Both the position numbers and the translations under genes were made by a program. From Eledone cirrhosa (lineage: Eukaryota): a DNA stretch of 64,000 nucleotides. The stretch is taken from positions 279,930,001 through 279,994,000 of the forward strand of contig OZ024743.1 in assembly GCA_964016885.1 (NCBI GenBank), in the 5' to 3' direction. The notes beneath the pieces were generated by a model, which worked only from the letters and a program-made list of their open reading frames with translations, made no database searches and was not told the origin of the DNA. Shown in pieces: positions 11,270 to 57,250 of the stretch. The first letter of the stretch is position 1. Each line of letters opens with the position of its first letter.

Positions 11270-11629
11270 ATAGTATAAAAAAAACGAAAAATCAGTGATG
11301 CCTCTGGACTCAGTTTATTGCGTGTTACAATTGTTTCGCCGGCAGGTAGCTCGGGACATGATCACTGTGTGGATCTCGCTGATTGTACGGCTGCAGGTTC
11401 CTTCGGACACGTGCAGTTCGTTCGGAGCAAATTTTCTCGAAAATTTCGTTCCGAGCAAATTTTCTCACGAGAAAATTTGCTCGGAACGAACTGCACGTGT
11501 CCGAAGGAACCTGCAGCCGTACAATCAGCGAGATCCACACAGTGATCATGTCCCGAGCTACCTGCCGGCGAAACAATTGTAACACGCAATAAACTGAGTC
11601 CAGATGCATCACTAATTTTTCGTTTTTTA

Positions 11630-11635
<6 letters not shown>
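11270..11635. mobile_element. Near-perfect fold-back with ~170-bp arms, probably head-to-head PLE pLTR ends
   Basis: 11270-11440 is the reverse complement of ~11468-11635, with a short internal duplication at the centre. The right end runs into (TA)n and each arm carries a hammerhead-like motif. Confidence 0.8.
11496..11586 (+). ncRNA. Hammerhead-like motif with variant core and long stem II (mirror copy 11321-11411, minus)
   Basis: Stem I CGTGT/ACACG; core CCGAAGG(A); GCCG/CGGC next to GAAA (11570-11573); palindromic stem III CAATTG; GUA triplet. Confidence 0.55.
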
Positions 11636-14239: not shown

Positions 14240-14888
14240 TAAATCCATCAATTAATGGTCCAAGCCGTATGAAGAACTCAATGTAATCCGTATGTAGAAT
14301 ATGTTGTGAAGCAAAGTTTAAAATACAAAGTTTCAACGAGATAATTCATTGGAAGCAGAGTCAAAAAGATACAAATAGTGAAAACAATGAAATTAAACAA
14401 AATACGGGTAATTCATAGTAAAACCCATTATTTTACGATCGCTTCTGTGGGGTAGTTCTCCGTATATTCATTCTATTAATGATCTATGTAAAATATATTA
14501 CAAATTATCAAAGTAAGAAAATATACATACGTCTCCCCTACCCGCCGTCTTCAGAAATAATGAATTTTGTTTATTGAATAATATAAAACATGTATTAACT
14601 GCTTCCGCTAAAGAAGTGGTATTAGCTAATCTTTAGCGGAAGCAGTTAATAATTGTAAAAAGAAGAAAATTAATTATAACCTAACTTGGAAGATTCCCAT
14701 TTCTTATCAGGGCAATAGAAAGGAGTGTGGACTATGTTCCCAAGAAATTTTTGAAATTACTAAATCGAAAGACACTCTATTAAATAAAAGACAGCAATTA
14801 AGTATCGCATGTAACCATAGAATTAGAAAGACATTCAAGTATTATAAATACAACTAAACAAATAAAGAAGAAAATATAAAAGAAAATG

Positions 14889-14924
<36 letters not shown>

Positions 14925-14927
<3 letters not shown>

Positions 14928-15056
14928 CGAAGTAATTGTGGTAAGGAACCAGATGGACCATAACGCACCAGAGTACTCAATAGTAGAGTGGGTAATAGGA
15001 AAAAGTATGACCCCGACGGCAGAGCTCAAGCCGTTTCGACGGCTATTTCTGGACTA
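14925..15056 (-). mobile_element. Short 3'-terminal pLTR copy of the intact-PLE family (family A)
   Basis: Closely similar to 32504-32644; abuts (TA)n. Confidence 0.85.
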
Positions 15057-15104
15057 TAACTAAAATAAGTTATTGGGATATCCAATAACTTATTTTAGTT
15101 ATTG

Positions 15105-15175
15105 TTCGCGCTAGCCTGAGGTATCTGGTCTTTAATGCGAAGAAATACCTATGATGGCTAGTAGACCACTGATGA
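15105..15175 (+). ncRNA. Candidate pseudoknotted (non-circularly permuted) hammerhead ribozyme, copy 1
   Basis: TTCGC/GCGAA before GAAA; AGGTAT/ATACCT; AUC triplet; TGGTCT/AGACCA before CTGATGA; extra helix CTAGCC/GGCTAG. Confidence 0.55.
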
Positions 15176-15672
15176 TGGATAGTCCTATTTCTAATTCTTC
15201 ATTTTAATCTGTATATCACATATGCAACAACAGAGCACGCCATTTTTCATTCCTAAATGCTTTCCCCTTCGCTGTGACTTCTCTTTGTCTCTCCCCTTAC
15301 TGCTATCCTCTTTCTCTCTCCCCCTTCTCTCTCCTTCTCTCTCTTACTCTCATTCACCCCTTCTGCTACTCACCCTCTCTCGGCTAGCCTCTTCCTCACA
15401 CTTTCACTCACTCACTCTCTGCTACTCACACTCTCTCTCAATTCCTCCACCGTCCCACACCGTGCGTAATTCTTTCCTCGCTTACTTTCGCATGGTTGGG
15501 ATGTGTCTCTCGTCTTCTCGTCAATATTCGCAAGTTCTTATGTTCAAATGAATCATTGACTTGATTTTCTCATTTTTTCCTCTCTTCACGTTGCATCACC
15601 ATTCATCTTTGTTTACCTGTCTCTCCTTCTCCACCCAATTCTTTTTATCCCAATAACTTATTTTAGTTATTG

Positions 15673-15743
15673 TTCGCGCTAGCCCGAGGTATCTGGTCTT
15701 TAATGCGAAGAAATACCTATGATGGCTAGTAGACCACTGATGA
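15673..15743 (+). ncRNA. Candidate pseudoknotted hammerhead ribozyme, copy 2
   Basis: Identical to copy 1 except T>C at one predicted unpaired linker position. Confidence 0.55.
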
Positions 15744-15965
15744 TGGATAGTCCTATTCCTAATTCTTCATTTTAATTTATATATATATATATATATATCG
15801 CTTGCCACGCATCTCGGAAGTTGTTTTTCGTTAATTCCTAAGCCGAAATACGATTCTCGGTAATTTATATTAAAACTCTTATACATCTATATTAAAACTT
15901 TTATACTCTGCTATGTATTGAGTACCTTACTTACTGTGGTTACCTCCGATTCAACCCGGAATAAC

Positions 15966-20914: not shown

Positions 20915-23410
20915 TCTTCTTCTTCTTCTTCTTCTTCTTCTTCTTCTTCTTCTTCTTCTTCTTCTTCTTCTTCTTCTTCTTCTTCTTCTTCTTCTTCTTC
21001 TTCTTCTTCTTCTTCTTCTTCTTCTTCTTCTTCTTCTTCGCTCTCCTATTCCTGGGACGGTCGTTGGGGCAGAGTCTTCAAACACTACTTCCAAGGGCGC
21101 TGTCAGGAGCAACCGCCTCCAACTGATGTAGCTCGATCCCCAAGCGAGATAAGCTAAGGTCATGGATGTTATCCAACCATGTTGCTCGGGGAAGGTCAAC
21201 CTCTGAATTTCCTGCTGGTTAGTTTCGCCCGTAAAATCAGTCCACTGATTCTTTCCTGAAACAATCTACCTTCATGTCCATAATCCCGGAGCTTGATAGC
21301 TCTATTAGGAAAAGTAGAATCTCCACCTGGAGTGACTCTCTGATCTCCAAGCTACATACTCTATCGCGTAACGTTACTCCTAAGACCCTTCGGAAGAAAC
21401 CAATTTCTGCAGTTTGTATTCGCGATCGTATTCTTTCGGTCTTACTCAAGATTCATGACCTTAGGTAAACACTAATATGGACTTGAAGATAGCGAGTTTG
21501 GTCTTTACATCTACCGCTTCTTCTCATTACCGAATGCTGAAAACTGGTACATTACTGCACCAGCTCCTGCAATCCATGCACTTAATTCAAGGCCCTGTCT
21601 TCCATCACTCGTGAACACGGCCCCGAGATACTTGAACTTCTCTACCTGCTTCAGTGGAACTCCATTCACAAGTAGAGTGCACTGCGCAGGATTTCTTGAG
21701 AGGACAAGCGTCTCAGTTTTCGCAGCACTGATTTTCATTCCAAGTCATGCAGCAATCAGCGTCAAACCTATCAAGCGCAAGTCGTAGATCAACTTCTGTC
21801 GAATTAAGTAGCACCATGTCATCAACAAATTCTAGCCGACTAATTTTACAGCCGCCAGTCGTGATACCACTTCCAACCTGGCTGCGCATGTCAATCATGT
21901 TTATAAAATAATGAACAGGAGCTTTGACAGTACGCACCCTTGGCGAAGTCTAAGTCTCACATTGAAATGTTTCGATTCAGCACCATTTATCAGAGCACAA
22001 ATATTCGGGCATTCATATATAGACATCAGGGCAACAAGCAGCTGACAATTGATCCAATATCCCTGCAGAGCCTTCCACAGCAAATCCCGAAGAACGCGGT
22101 CACATGCCTTTTTGACATCTACGAAACAAGATTTCCCGACGACCTGCCGCAGTGTGAATATTTGGTCGACTGTGCTGCGTCCGGGGCGAAAACCCCACTG
22201 TTCATCAATTAGGTTGGACTCGACAATCTCCTTACAACACTTTGCCAGACACTTAGCATATACTTTACCAGAGAGGCTTAACAAGGAGATCCCACTGTAG
22301 TTGGAACAATCTCTCTTGTCTCCCTTTTTGAAAATTGGGATTATCACTCCCGATTGCCATTGCTTGGGTGTCTTTCCTGAAATCCAGGCCACCCGGCACA
22401 CACGGCTTTTACTCTCTTGGGTCGGATTTCATCCTCCCCACAGGCCTTGCCACATTTGAGTTCTTTAACTGCTCTTGTTCCCTCAGTCTCCAAGAGATTA
22501 GTCACCTCTCCCAGATGCACCACGTGTACATCAGATGCTGTTGTTATCTGGTTTAGATCAGAAAAGTATTCTCTCCTCGCGAAGATGCACCTTTCAGAAA
22601 AGCAAAGGACCCCGACGCGTTCTTGGTAGCAAGTGTAGAGGAGGAATTCTTATTATGAATTCAGCGGGTGGTCTGCCAGAACACTTCATTTGCTGCTCTG
22701 CAGTAAGATTCCAGCTTACCTCCAAAGTCCTCCCATTTCCTAACTTTGGACGCCGTTACTGACTCTGCTGCCATTTCTAGGGTATGACTGTACCGCAAGT
22801 GCAAGAAAGAGGACTTATTTCCAAGCCCAGGTTTGTAGGCCTCCTTCTTATCTGGTATAGCATTTTTGACGTCTTGATTGGACCAGGAAGTCCTCCTGCA
22901 ATCTGGCGTCATACCAACTCGCGTTCGCCCACAGCATTTAACAGCTGAAGCAGAAACTGCTGTATCAACGTCCTCAGTTTGCTCAGGGAGTTCTCTGAAT
23001 GCAATAGTATCTGGATACCTGGTCCTGACTTCCTTACCCACCTTATCCACAAAATCTTCCCACTTTATCCTGTAGGTCGTCCTGGGCCAGCTTGTTCTGT
23101 GGGCTTCTTTGGATTTATTATTTTCAACTTGCAGATAACTAGATGGTGATCAGTTAACAGCTAAGCCCCTCTCTTAATACGAATATGCAGCCCTGGATCG
23201 AAGACATCAGAGAAATTTAGATGGTGGTCGCTTTTACTTCCAATCACTTCTTCCATTCGTATTTAGATCGGGGAGTTTCCATCCTCCATCCGAATCTACA
23301 GTACCAGGGTCATTGAGCTTTTTTTAAGAAACCCTGACTATATCTAGCTGGTAGCATCTAGCCACCTCCACTAATTCTTGCTCCTTACCTTTTAAGGGTT
23401 GTAATGCGTT
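20915..23410 (-). mobile_element. Degenerate RTE-clade LINE (Rex3/Expander-like) with (AGA)n tail
   Basis: Pieces KGKEQELVE..YQLDIV (APE start), WQSGVIIPIFKKGDKRDCSNYSGISLLS, EQWGFRPGRSTVDQIF, LRQGCVLS, FVDDMVL, VEKFKYLG; (TCT)n at 20915-21039. Confidence 0.9.
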
Positions 23411-31992: not shown

Positions 31993-32189
31993 AATAGGAA
32001 AATGTTTAACCCCGATAGCAGAGCTCAAGCCGTTTCGACGGCTATTTCTAGTCCAGAAATAGCCGTCGAAACGGCTTGAGCTCTGCCGTTGGGGTTAAAC
32101 ATTTTCCTATTACCCACTCTACTAACGTAAGTATTGAGTATTCTCGTGCGTTATGGCTCATCTGGTTCCTTACCACACTTCCTCCGTTA
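31993..32189. mobile_element. Head-to-head short pLTR copies of family A
   Basis: 31993-32048 and 32049-32189 are inverted relative to each other and match 32504-32644; flanked by TA repeats. Confidence 0.85.
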
Positions 32190-32465: not shown

Positions 32466-32506
<41 letters not shown>

Positions 32507-32597
32507 CGAAGGAAGTGTGGTAAGGAACCAGGTGGACCATAACGCACCAAAGTACTCAATACTTGAGGTAGTAGAGTGGGTAATAGGAACCAGTAAG

Positions 32598-32691
32598 ACC
32601 CCGACAGCTGAGCTCAAGCCGTTTCGACGGCTAATTCTGGACTAAATGAAAATTTATCCTGGTATTTAAATAGCCAATCTTCTCGAGGGGT
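32598..32691 (-). ncRNA. Variant type I hammerhead (U3-C4...A8 core, long stem II) in the PLE 3' pLTR
   Basis: Minus strand: ACCCC-TCGAGAA-GAT(T)GGCTATTT..31 nt..AATTAGCCGTC-GAAA-CGGCT(TGAGCTC)AGCTG-TC-GGGGT. Confidence 0.7.
32663..32672 (-). promoter_or_regulatory. Putative TATA box (TATTTAAATA) of the pLTR, with Inr-like TCATTTAGT about 20-30 nt from its start
   Basis: Same context as TATAAATACC in families B (~13011) and C (~29946); short copies of family A begin at the Inr-like site. Confidence 0.45.
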
Positions 32692-33793
32692 AATTCCATA
32701 TATGGTCAAAGTGATTGTCAAAAATCAGTAGTAATTCTGTGGTTGCAAATTAGTAGGGGAGATGGTGGCTAAACCTGCCAGTAGAAGAAAGAGGGGAGGG
32801 GGTGGAGTAGACCCAATCGAGCGTTGGTAGTGCCAGCTACAGCTGGGCATGAGGTCAAAGAAGATACAGGGGAGGGGGAGGGGGAGGAAGTCGGAACGGT
32901 AGGTAGAACAATGGGGGGTAGAAATATATAGGAAAGAAAAAATACTGAGAGTGAAGAAAAGCCAATAAGTGTAAAGAAAAAAGTAAAGTAAATTAAAATC
33001 TACGACCTAGGTCTCTAGCTATTGTTAGGCTAGAATAAATAAATAAAGAAAGAAAGAAAGAAGTAAAGAAAGAAATAAAGAAATAACGAAATAAGTAAAA
33101 GAACTAGGTGGGACGGAATAGGCAAGGACCCTTTTAAGAGGTATAAGTACGTAAATGATACGGTGACGGGTCAACAAAAGGGGCCAAAATACTAAAGAGA
33201 CTACCACGAAATAAACAATAAAGGTTTCCATCCCGGGCACAATGCCAGCAATCACCCAGTGCAGCAAAGTGAACTAGTACGAGATAATAATTCTGAGTCC
33301 CGAGAAAAATATATACTAATGCTAACTCTAAAAGATCTAAAACAAGCTACATGAAAGTTCGTACGAAGTAAAGGTCGAATACGGAAAAATAAATTCAGAA
33401 TCCACCCCGCCCAAAAGAAAAGCGAAGAAAGAAATACTGAAACGAAAAAATAAGGCATAAGTGCCACTAAGAAATATAGAGGGCACAGAGAATAGTGGGA
33501 GCGGTCGGGAAAAGGGGACAAGTATCTGGGGTCTAAACCAACTGCTATAAAGGGCGGAGTCCGCCAAATCTATCATAGACTAGGGGAGAGGGTGGGGGTA
33601 CTAAGGCTACAAGGGGCCAAAGGGCAGCCTCGAGTGGGCGAGAAAAGACGCCGACAAAGGAGAAGAGCTGGGGTAGAAGGACTAAGGAGAGAGGGGGGAA
33701 GGAAATAAAGGAAGCAATAAAAGAATACAAAGAAGATCTTACGTCTCCCTTGGCAAGCAGGGGTTACCCATTGCAAAATCGGCAAGTGGGGTG

Positions 33794-35959
33794 TTATAGC
33801 CCTAGTCTACCCCCCGGGTCATTATGGGGTTTGAGGGCGAGATAAGTCCTACGCAATCTATGTTTACATGCAGTAACCAGTTCATCTTTCTTGTTTAGGA
33901 GTTGGTCCGTCGAAAACAGCATTTGTAAAGTTTCCTCCGAGCATAAATTGCACGGACGGCGTCCTCCCGTGTAAGAATTGGCTCTGGACAGTAATCTCCA
34001 AGTGAGATCATAGGTGATGTTGTTGTCCTTGAGGTCCCATATGTGGCCCGAAAGTGTAGTGGCGTGACGCCGGGCCGGGTTTCGGAAGGTATGTCTATGT
34101 TGGTATAGCCGGGTCTTGAAGTCACATGCGGTAAGTCCTATATAGGCTTTGTTGGAGGTATCCGTCCTCACGTTGCACTGGTAGATCACATTACGGTCTC
34201 TGCATCTATTGTCGAGTGGGCAAATAGATCTATCCGGGCAGTTACACCTCCTGGTCGGTTCTCCACTGCTATTTAGGTTATTTCTGCCATCGGGGTTGAG
34301 TTTTTTGTTGTTAGAGGAGACGATGTTTTGTGCGAAGTTTGGTGTAGTGCTGTAAGAGAGTTTGATGGTATTTTTGTTAATTATGTTGTGGTAGCGGTAT
34401 TGTAATGGGAAGTGTTTTTCAATGAGCCTAAAGAATAGTTTCTCGATGGGAGTTGTCACCTCTGCGTTGTGGGGAGGATTGAACCATGTTACATTGCGTG
34501 AGCGGCGGTGTCTCCTGCTGGTTCGGCTAATGGGAGCTGGACAGTAGGATATTTCCTCCCGGAAACCACTCCGCTTGAGGGCCTGGTTGTAATAAGGCGC
34601 ATGTTCATCGAATATCCGCTCATTAGCTGACAAACAGGATGTGCGGAGGGAGATGTTTTTGACCAGGTTGTTTGTGATGTTCCTAGGATGGTTTGATCGG
34701 CGGTGGATGTAGTGCAGATTGTCATTAGGTTTCCTGTATGGGTAGTACAGGTCGTTTTCGAGGTCGAGAGTCACGTCCAGGAAGTTTACTCGGGTCAGGG
34801 ACGTTTGTAGGGTTATTTTAAATCCCCAGTTGCGGAAGAATCTGATTAATTGTTTCCGGACCCGATCTGTACTACTGGGGTTGTACCCTTTAAGGGTAAG
34901 GAGCCCATCATCACGGTACAATCCACCACCGAATGCAGGAAACATATCAGTGAGTTTGGCTATTAGGAATAATCCTATAAGATCTGTGACCTCCGCCGAA
35001 TCCGTGGTGCCCATGCTGACGTCGAAGGGTGAGTCGGGAGCTCTTTTTATCCATTTAGAGTCGTCAAAGAGTAAGACTGTCTTCCTGGCGTGGAGGATGA
35101 TTTTTCTTTCCTGGTCGGTGATGGGCACAAGTGTTTCGGCGAAGTCCAAGGCGGCAGTAAGTAGCGGTAAGGTGATTGAAGCATAGTAGCTCTCTATGTC
35201 GAACTGTATGAATTTAGTTTCTCGTTTATCCTCCATATTGCTGAACCAGGAGATTACTTCCTGGGTGTTGATCCATAGGCTAAGTCGGGTGTGTTGCTTG
35301 ACTTTTGGTATCACGCGGTCTAGGATTTTTTTGCTGATTCTCCCTATGTCGGACTTCGTTGGGTTAATAAGCCTGATAGAGGGTTTACGGTCAAAATCGG
35401 ATTTATGGTCCTTGAGTGTGAAGTATGGTGTCCGTGGGTCTAGAGGTTCCGTGCGGTCGGCGACCCCGAGGCTGGAGGTGATTTGTTGTCCATCTCGATT
35501 TATGTCCTCGATGCAAGAGTAGTTGGCCTTTTTATAGGTGGAGTTTAGGCTGCTCCTGATCAGTGTGTGGTATCTGTCAGGGTTGACAAAGTATAGGTTC
35601 CCAGTTTTATCCGAATGCACCATGATGTCATTTGTGTTATCATACTCTGTTAAGTTGCTACGGAGTTTTTGTAGGAATCGGTTGTGTCTGGGTTTAAATT
35701 TAATGTTCTTGACCAGTTGGAAGAGGTCATTCTCGAAGGGTGCGAGCAAGGGGTTCAGGGGCGGAGATTTGAAGGTAATAAATCCGAATCTCTCCTTGGT
35801 GCCGAAGTCTTGGTTGTCGCAATATCTGTCATAGAAAAAAGTTCTCCATCTAAGTCTTTTCGCAAATAGATTGATTTTTTGCGTGAGCATCCGAAGGTTA
35901 AGTTTTTTCGGTGGGATTGGGATGTTCTTGGTAGAGAAGTGAATGTTGTGTTTTCGCAT
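33794..35959 (-). CDS. PLE polyprotein: reverse transcriptase + Cys linker + C-terminal GIY-YIG endonuclease (721 aa from MRKHNIHF)
   Basis: RT motifs FIQFDIESYYASI, DVSMGTTDSAEV, GLYRDDGL, VNFLDVTL, YRKP/SNHP; linker CNCPDRSICPLDNRC; endonuclease NVIYQC..AYIGLT..FKTRLYQH..LSGHIW..CNLCSEE..LLNK. The ORF-track extension to 36211 runs through the terminal repeat and microsatellite. Confidence 0.95.
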   Translation of the reverse strand: MRKHNIHFSTKNIPIPPKKLNLRMLTQKINLFAKRLRWRTFFYDRYCDNQDFGTKERFGFITFKSPPLNPLLAPFENDLFQLVKNIKFKPRHNRFLQKLRSNLTEYDNTNDIMVHSDKTGNLYFVNPDRYHTLIRSSLNSTYKKANYSCIEDINRDGQQITSSLGVADRTEPLDPRTPYFTLKDHKSDFDRKPSIRLINPTKSDIGRISKKILDRVIPKVKQHTRLSLWINTQEVISWFSNMEDKRETKFIQFDIESYYASITLPLLTAALDFAETLVPITDQERKIILHARKTVLLFDDSKWIKRAPDSPFDVSMGTTDSAEVTDLIGLFLIAKLTDMFPAFGGGLYRDDGLLTLKGYNPSSTDRVRKQLIRFFRNWGFKITLQTSLTRVNFLDVTLDLENDLYYPYRKPNDNLHYIHRRSNHPRNITNNLVKNISLRTSCLSANERIFDEHAPYYNQALKRSGFREEISYCPAPISRTSRRHRRSRNVTWFNPPHNAEVTTPIEKLFFRLIEKHFPLQYRYHNIINKNTIKLSYSTTPNFAQNIVSSNNKKLNPDGRNNLNSSGEPTRRCNCPDRSICPLDNRCRDRNVIYQCNVRTDTSNKAYIGLTACDFKTRLYQHRHTFRNPARRHATTLSGHIWDLKDNNITYDLTWRLLSRANSYTGGRRPCNLCSEETLQMLFSTDQLLNKKDELVTACKHRLRRTYLALKPHNDPGGRLGL

Positions 35960-49102: not shown

Positions 49103-49147
49103 AGTCACTGAAGAGGTCACAGAGCGTGTGACGAAAGAACTATGACT
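49103..49147 (+). ncRNA. Minimal type I hammerhead ribozyme
   Basis: AGTCA-CTGAAGA-G-GTCACA(GAGCG)TGTGAC-GAAA-GAAC-TA-TGACT. Confidence 0.82.
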
Positions 49148-57094: not shown

Positions 57095-57099
<5 letters not shown>

Positions 57100-57250
57100 A
57101 AAAAGTATGACCCCGACGGCAGAGCTCAAGCCGTTTCGACGGCTATTTCTGGACTGAAATAGTCCTATTTCCCACTCTACTACCCTAAGTATTGAGTACT
57201 CTGGTGCGTTATGGTCCATCTGGTTCCTTACCACAATTCTTTTGTTTTAT
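57095..57250. mobile_element. Head-to-head short pLTR pieces of family A
   Basis: 57095-57156 matches 14996-15055; 57164-57250 is the inverted 3' terminus; (TA)n flanks. Confidence 0.8.

Follow-up and report, generated by a model that had tools for sequence, protein, structure and literature searches.

The window analyzed here, a stretch of 64,000 nucleotides from the Eledone cirrhosa genome, contains two copies of a motif that, judged by its sequence, is a genuine hammerhead-type motif with a non-circular strand order. The first copy is followed by the second at a distance of 568 nt (135-nt repeat, 97% identity). Both belong to a non-autonomous Penelope-type insertion, whose make-up of one 568-nt unit plus a terminal repeat of ~130 nt accounts for the two copies. 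The explanation that we consider most likely, and indeed probable, is a self-cleaving ribozyme that acts as a monomer, slowly or under regulation, and whose role is to trim multimeric transcripts. New here are the junction inserted into a split stem II, the occurrence in animal retroelements, and the putative connection with Naiad elements. The anatomy of the motif, its covariation, the structure of its copies, and the distribution of their ends were observed directly. The features of the locus, in window coordinates, are as follows.

15079..15778, + strand: non-autonomous Penelope-type insertion (568-nt non-coding unit and ~130 nt terminal repeat); 5′ end truncated, 3′ end going into (TA)n
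15056..15080, − strand: the element's 5′ end repeated as a short inverted copy, as is usual for Penelope-like insertions (PMC8557442)
15079..15182, + strand: motif copy 1, predicted cut after C15125; the 5′ truncation falls within helix X
15210..15258, + strand: AC-rich "tail" between the family's two preferred 3′ ends
15645..15750, + strand: permuted hammerhead copy 2, complete (descriptor, alignment, fold)
15645..15650, + strand: helix X, 5′ strand; partner 15745-15750, directly 3′ of CUGAUGA-U
15651..15672, + strand: hairpin H, an 8-bp stem that separates X from stem II′
15673..15678, + strand: stem II′, 5′ strand; partner 15704-15709, before GAAA
15678..15684, + strand: strut helix, 5′ strand; partner 15724-15730
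15687..15699, + strand: block S, with a stem III strand, AUC with the predicted cut after C15693, and a stem I strand
15710..15718, + strand: block G, with GAAA and the stem III partner
15731..15744, + strand: block C, with the stem I partner, CUGAUGA (15737-15743), and U10.1 (15744)
15779..15798, strand not applicable: (TA)n target microsatellite at the element's 3′ end, read from the sequence

Rereading of the sequence placed the hammerhead elements of copy 1 where the original prediction had put them, namely the AUC triplet with C15125, GAAA (15142-15145), TACCT, AGACCA, and CTGATGA (15169-15175), together with the pairs TTCGC/GCGAA and CTAGCC/GGCTAG. The elements recur in the second copy, 568 nt away, as expected of the direct-repeat duplication that had been described. 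The two copies had been said to differ at a single position; this is correct within 15105-15175 (T15117/C15685, in a 2-nt linker), and further differences were found at 15079-15081 and from 15190 on. The extent of the motif had been understated, as copy 2 spans 15645-15750 and includes helix X and hairpin H, both of which were overlooked. Copy 2 is whole, and copy 1 is cut within X.

In helix X, the 4-6 bases that follow CUGANGA-N pair with bases ~45 nt upstream of the cut, and hairpin H separates this helix from the upstream strand of stem II; in family Q, reading by eye puts the hairpin outside X, on its 5′ side. The hammerhead core is complete (C3 U4 G5 A6 N7 G8 A9, G12 A13 A14 A15.1, U16.1 H17), stems I and III border it in the proper register, and N17 is never G among the family types. 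Stems I and II′ measure at most 7-8 bp in every family. The linkers between the strut and stem III are 2 and 5 nt long, which is short for the known three-dimensional core; Eckert et al. note the same puzzle (PMC10085705). The minimum free energy (MFE) structure of copy 2 (15645..15750) contained X (5/6 pairs), hairpin H, the strut, and stem III, and placed the stem I strand within the stem III loop, not in stem I pairing.

A descriptor for the S-G-C order, consisting of stem I of at least 4 bp, stem III, and both core motifs, matched only two places in the 64-kb window, and these are the two motif copies. The claim of a hammerhead core with non-circular strand order is upheld, the order being S-G-C. 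On three dinucleotide shuffles of 581 kb, the same descriptor gave 1, 0, and 2 matches, compared with 138 in the real loci, which had been selected for the motif. Standard models miss the motif, as had been anticipated: Rfam produced no match at gathering score in the whole window, around the motif itself no match to a ribozyme at E ≤ 5, and at loose E-values, hairpin or microsatellite matches only.

Genome-wide, the 135-nt repeat returned 2,364 first-look candidates, and the 40 that were scored were 94-100% identical. The pattern of blocks S and G had at least 8,105 exact matches in the genome and none in the control, and 40 stretches fetched from these matches yielded seven further young families. 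Family B was reached through a divergent copy (locus L015). A looser descriptor gave 219 matches versus 14 in controls and added three older families, P, Q, and R, whose stems are unrelated in sequence and whose design is kept. In total, 12 families carry the motif, the helices of families P2, R, R2, Q, and Q2 having been taken partly from reading and not from automatic helix picking. A conventional hammerhead, from which the present arrangement could have been derived, was found in the consensus of none of the 12 families. Among 52 copies picked without the CUGANGA block, block C was intact in 45, with stem I paired at 5/5 positions in 40 of them, and an exact helix X partner was present in 40 of the 52.

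Across families, the core and the pairings are kept, with covariation in stem I, in the strut and hairpin, and at the 10.1-11.1 pair. In an alignment of 21 copies from nine families, 90.6% of the cells were paired, and two-sided changes were observed in 20/37 pairs; none of 500 shuffles scored as high, and slid controls paired at 24-46%. Stem I was 100% paired with two-sided changes in 5/6 pairs. The strut helix, which had been proposed from its two complementary linkers, was 96.8% paired and likewise showed two-sided changes in 5/6 pairs, followed by hairpin H (5/7 pairs) and stem III (2/6 pairs). One two-sided change in five pairs was seen in helix X, where family B is displaced by one column, and one in five in stem II′, where three pairs are invariant within young families; the stem II′ sequence differs in families P, Q, and R and in the coral-type copies described below. 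RNAalifold independently recovered H, the strut, and stem III.

Positions 10.1 and 11.1 were paired in 118/130 distinct copies (shuffled mean, 68) as G-C, A-U, U-A, or G-U; these copies are related and not independent, and one descriptor match among the 130 (L028), which looks like chance, was kept in the count. In copy 2 of the window, U10.1 (15744) can pair with A11.1 (15709). According to the original prediction, the chain is open at the A9/10.1 link. This describes coral-type and octopus Naiads, in which C11.1 is paired by the upstream strand as proposed; it fails for 10/12 families, in which 10.1-11.1 is paired, and helix X returns the strand after CUGAUGA to the 5′ side. Coral-type copies, as well as families G and H, lack the pair. 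The part of stem II located after A9 and before G12 comprises one pair in 10/12 families and none in coral-type copies, with the upstream strand providing the rest. All three block-to-block links are predicted to be continuous, and the chain opens within X, an insertion in stem II. Reconstitution of a contiguous block C by splicing or circularization was considered and rejected, given that X and H occur in every family and that no usable donor follows CUGAUGA. Overall, the earlier interpretation was borne out in part.

The motif is located at the end of a 568-nt repeat unit that is non-coding by ORF inspection, and units in tandem are spaced 502-637 nt apart. Copies of the element have variable 5′ ends, frequent inverted partners, and two preferred 3′ ends ~44 nt apart, both going into (TA)n. 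Measured from the core, the two 3′ ends lie at ~34/78 nt in family A, 30/73 nt in family B, and 16/62 nt in family D. Fixed 3′ ends, an optional tail, 5′ truncation, partial tandems, inverted 5′ copies, and (TA)n were thus all observed, a pattern described for Penelope-like elements (PMC8557442, section 6), and the Penelope-like context that had been suggested fits the carrier. Frangieh et al. (PMC11167929) place the tail between two internal reverse transcriptase (RT) start sites, within an AC-rich stretch. Since the tail is AC-rich here too, the + strand is probably the RNA strand. An RT motif upstream of the ribozyme motif was found in none of 40 loci (families P, Q, R, and others).

Cleavage of the RNA should halt RT at the site or just 3′ of it, so the 5′ ends of genomic copies can serve as a test. 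Among coral-type copies, 51/107 5′ ends fell 0-7 nt upstream of the anchor pattern (predicted cut at 5), followed by 9/56 and 3/47 in the next 8-nt bins (51/107 versus 9/56, Fisher p = 7e-5); all of these bins lie upstream of the anchor, and 16 of the 51 ends are at position 0. Family A was represented by 441 exact G-C segments, and 94 distinct copies were obtained from the first ~90 places. At the first site of this family, no excess of 5′ ends was observed (11/94 in the 16 nt from GAAA to the site versus 7/83 in the next 16 nt, p = 0.62), and 83/94 copies pass it. Of the 20 family A copies that reach 487 nt, 11 end by 525 nt, about one unit from the nearer RT start. Among the copies reaching the next upstream ribozyme, 3/7 in family A and 5/7 in family B have their 5′ end in the 16 nt that follow its site on the 3′ side. 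With the background taken as 5.9% per 16 nt, these 8/14 second-round copies give p = 3e-7; the background is uneven, with windows near one unit length at 25-38%, and 8/14 against 20% gives p = 0.002. The 5′ ends are suggestive of templates cut at the upstream ribozyme, with the last ribozyme uncut or held by its helices, and the motif would then be self-cleaving.

The strand order itself is not new, since it was published by Eckert et al. in 2023 (PMC10085705), and the original prediction of a novel topology does not stand in this respect. These authors split the hammerhead into blocks C, G, and S and predicted 583 non-circular SGC ribozymes, of which five were shown to cleave, and also described two CSG sequences and one GCS sequence; in vitro cleavage is established for strut-containing SGC and CSG ribozymes. 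Type SGC is known from metatranscriptomes and other sequence collections, with no animal genomes named. Like type SGC (HRIMA-1 and variants), the present motif has the S-G-C order, a helix that connects stems I and II at their outer ends, and a short linker between these stems (4-5 nt here versus typically 3 nt there), and type SGC also often has one extra nucleotide after CUGAUGA. In type SGC, however, stem II directly follows CUGANGA and the strut strand is 3′-terminal, whereas here the stem II and strut strands are 5′, joined to block S, and X and H interrupt block C. CUGANGA and the stem II strand were taken as inseparable by Eckert et al., and in the SGC rows of their supplement that were consulted, stem II begins directly after CUGAUGA or after one U. 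Because stem II is split, the motif lies outside their SGC definition. Type CSG, represented by two metagenome sequences, has the same non-circular connectivity, including the link between strut and stem III, but its chain is open between block G and the strut, and its stem II is plain. Types I, II, and III differ in order, being CGS, GSC, or SCG and not SGC.

Animal non-LTR retrozymes (PMC7229834; 10.64898/2026.07.22.740005) resemble the present element in having non-coding tandem units with one hammerhead each and in being non-autonomous and derived from Penelope-like elements. They differ in their type I hammerheads, units of 150-450 nt (PMC7229834), and circular RNAs, whereas the element described here, known from genomic DNA, has a non-circularly permuted ribozyme that is not of type I, units of 500-640 nt, and a mostly dispersed distribution. 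Type I models are the only ones in the parts of Cervera and de la Peña 2020 (PMC7229834) and of the 2026 preprint by Li, Clavereau, and Pollet that were used. A 2026 paper mentions hammerhead variants with extra helices or other permutations, citing Eckert et al. and two others. The minimal type I hammerheads of canonical Penelope-like elements are also near the 3′ end and upstream of the RT starts, but they have the conventional C-G-S order and tiny stems. In the openly accessible full-text literature, there was no report of SGC or CSG ribozymes in animal genomes or Penelope-like elements, or of a split stem II; the wide distribution is apparently unreported.

The putative link to Naiads rests on shared architecture in other species. 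Naiads and the present element have in common (TA)n targets, 5′ truncation, partial tandems, inverted 5′ copies, an optional tail, and, at several consensus 3′ ends, the same ribozyme design, one of these ends being flagged as "HHR_half_core" (PMC8557442). Here, in contrast, the unit is non-coding, without the Naiad ORF of N-terminal GIY-YIG and C-terminal RT, and its tail is ~44 nt as opposed to 30-40 nt. In Craig et al. 2021 (PMC8557442), Naiads are described as having no canonical hammerheads, with 10 flagged "HHR_core" and eight "HHR_half_core". When the last 350-420 nt of 53/54 Naiad consensuses from the supplement were read by eye, the S-G-C order with upstream II′ and strut was recognized at the 3′ end of nine of the 53: two from octopus, three from Acropora, and those of Pomphorhynchus, Clytia-3, Morbakka-2, and Beroe, the last with a stem I of just 2 bp. 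X and H were seen in seven of these nine; in the two octopus consensuses, X is weak. Complete type-CSG motifs, each with a strut, stand at the ends of six nematode Naiads, and the other 38 ends showed cut-off cores, different motifs, or nothing in the stretch seen. The CSG nematode Naiads (Naiad-1/2/3_Nbra, Hcon, Hpol, and Asuum), also read by eye, have long strut helices and parasitic hosts.

The 21-nt Acropora-type motif was present in at least 120 metagenome stretches, with CUGANGA downstream in 70/106. Full copies of this coral type have all helices, with an X of 8-9 bp that begins directly after A9, and C11.1 is paired with the upstream strand; two subfamilies show compensatory changes in X and stem I. 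In one metagenome locus (L248), a Naiad-type RT C-terminus runs into a stop without an endonuclease and is followed by a 220-nt UTR and a coral-type motif, which in this copy has a 4-nt insertion before the core. Pfam gave no name for this RT end, and viral contigs contained no relative of the Naiad RT piece; all eight descriptor matches in viral contigs look like chance, as the S block is missing. The octopus Naiad motif has no sequence match to the unit studied here and had 0 matches in the E. cirrhosa genome. These units presumably derive from Naiad. On balance, we lean toward the view that the non-circular hammerhead is ancient in the Naiad clade and vertically inherited, as CSG in nematodes and as an active split form in other animals. 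The latter, with split stem II and a four- or five-way junction, would occur in ctenophores, cnidarians, acanthocephalans, and cephalopods, would fall beyond the six-permutation scheme with thousands of copies per animal genome, and would account for the reported "missing" ribozyme of many Naiads. Separately, a conserved motif of another kind, rich in GC, occupies this position in the consensus stretches seen of Naiads from oyster, ark clam, pearl oyster, and hemichordate, and of Naiad-2_Chem. We take this GC-rich motif to resemble an HDV-like ribozyme, and that of Naiad-1_Movir is presumably twister-like. Naiads may therefore swap ribozyme classes.

A coding partner with the motif was found neither among the GIY-YIG loci of this genome that were examined (32/150) nor among Naiad remnants. 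The endonuclease is C-terminal in every one of those among the 32 loci in which both domains could be read, and several examined loci have minimal type I cores instead. The motif is present in two of the 32, and both were rejected as partners: in L167, it lies behind microsatellite tracts and is a separate insertion, and in L169, it precedes the ORF, and five other loci of apparently the same family do not have it. One of two matches to a Naiad pattern is Naiad-like, its 3′ end missing, and none of seven RT-thumb-like remnants has CUGANGA within 1 kb downstream. Decayed Naiad-like coding remnants with many stops and frameshifts were noted at L174, L176:1400-2950, and L399-L405, the decayed ORF of L174 resembling octopus Naiad proteins by eye. 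The Naiad traces found in this genome are decayed remnants without the motif.

We propose the following mechanism. The motif would be a hammerhead of non-circular (SGC/CSG/GCS) connectivity, outside the published six-permutation scheme, located at the 3′ end of Naiad-clade Penelope-like elements and surviving in E. cirrhosa as tandem units that are non-coding and retrozyme-like. Both core motifs would be normal, as would stems I and III, with the strut connecting stems I and II at their outer ends; stem II would have only 0-2 bp at the core and branch into X, H, and II′, with the chain opening in X. Folding would take place within one repeat, with X, H, the strut, and stem III nested and stems I and II′ forming pseudoknots into the stem III loop, and the cut would come after the NUH triplet. 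A presumed Penelope-type RT/GIY-YIG protein would copy the units into (TA)n, starting at either of two sites ~34 or 78 nt downstream of CUGAUGA. It would usually pass the nearest, uncut ribozyme and often stop where cleavage of the next unit upstream had produced a 5′ end; from this stop, trimming of multimeric transcripts is the likely job of the ribozyme.

Several observations could also be accommodated if activity required two repeats, in tandem or in trans, to exchange strands, as in the dimeric minimal hammerheads of other Penelope-like elements. Covariation is the same for pairing within or between units, units do occur in tandem, the short linkers would strain a monomer, and the 3′-most motif is usually passed while upstream motifs stop copies. 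However, X, H, the strut, and stem III nest locally and make up the MFE structure of a single copy, the 7-8 bp limit on stems I and II′ is what a threaded monomer would presumably need, and single SGC and CSG motifs cleave as monomeric transcripts (PMC10085705); we therefore judge strand exchange unlikely and favor monomer folding.

The passage of the first site by 83/94 family A copies would equally be expected if the fold were kept as a protein binding or priming signal, with cleavage lost or protein-aided and without a part in copying. A precedent exists in the Anolis Poseidon hammerhead, which, according to PMC11167929, is dispensable for in vitro insertion and cleaves only with protein, the main template being uncut RNA. 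This explanation is rather improbable in view of the conservation of every catalytic core position across families with wholly different stems, the exclusion of G at N17, and the pile-up of 5′ ends at the predicted cut. It is very improbable that X, H, and II′ represent an "off" state of a plain type SGC ribozyme whose active form has a short conventional stem II. Family B can make such a stem II of 2-3 bp, the 10.1-11.1 pair forms in most families of this genome, and natural hammerheads with a stem II of 1-2 bp exist (Perreault 2011, PMC3088659), but family A and most others cannot pair past 10.1-11.1, coral-type copies not even that far, and the strut comes after the upstream II′ strand, just as in true SGC and CSG ribozymes it comes after stem II.

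Non-circular hammerheads have so far been a rarity from unassigned metatranscriptome and metagenome contigs. If the self-cleaving monomer that we favor is correct, they are abundant in animal genomes and missed by standard descriptors, and the question raised in the Naiad paper, why Naiads thrive without a canonical hammerhead and what the "half cores" are, would be answered. The link between CUGANGA and stem II, thought to be unbreakable, would be able to take an inserted junction, and the many families with different stems offer natural variants for a structure. The 5′ end pile-up constitutes a genomic test of the role of hammerheads in Penelope-like transposition, which was left open by the in vitro Poseidon work.

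Other mobile elements were noted in the window and at other loci. The 3′ end of another Penelope-like family occurs at 14925-15055 (−), 32505-34100 (−), 31993-32189, and 57095-57241; this family has a C-terminal endonuclease and a 1.3-kb 3′ UTR, and it stands head to head with the studied element. It possesses GAAAC, stem III, and a UC site, but its CUGANGA block is atypical and its stem II long; in many of its copies, the sequence begins at one same base in the loop of this stem. Minimal type I cores of other Penelope-like families, none of which is detected by Rfam, lie at 49108+, 49539+, 47770−, 50813+, 32356+, and 13048+. A C-terminal fragment of a GIY-YIG-type endonuclease with C-x-L-C and H-R motifs, for which Pfam gave no match, lies at 14639-14848 (+) and belongs to a separate Penelope-like insertion. 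A conventional retrozyme was seen at L171:7568-9053, as a tandem repeat of ~490-510 nt with a type I-like core in each of its four units. Within the window, positions 11276-11631 form a near-perfect inverted repeat of 164 nt with a 28-nt spacer, short repeats near 20.3-20.7 kb presumably resemble an octopus SINE, and a fragment of a non-LTR retrotransposon reverse transcriptase is located at 21901-22428 (−).
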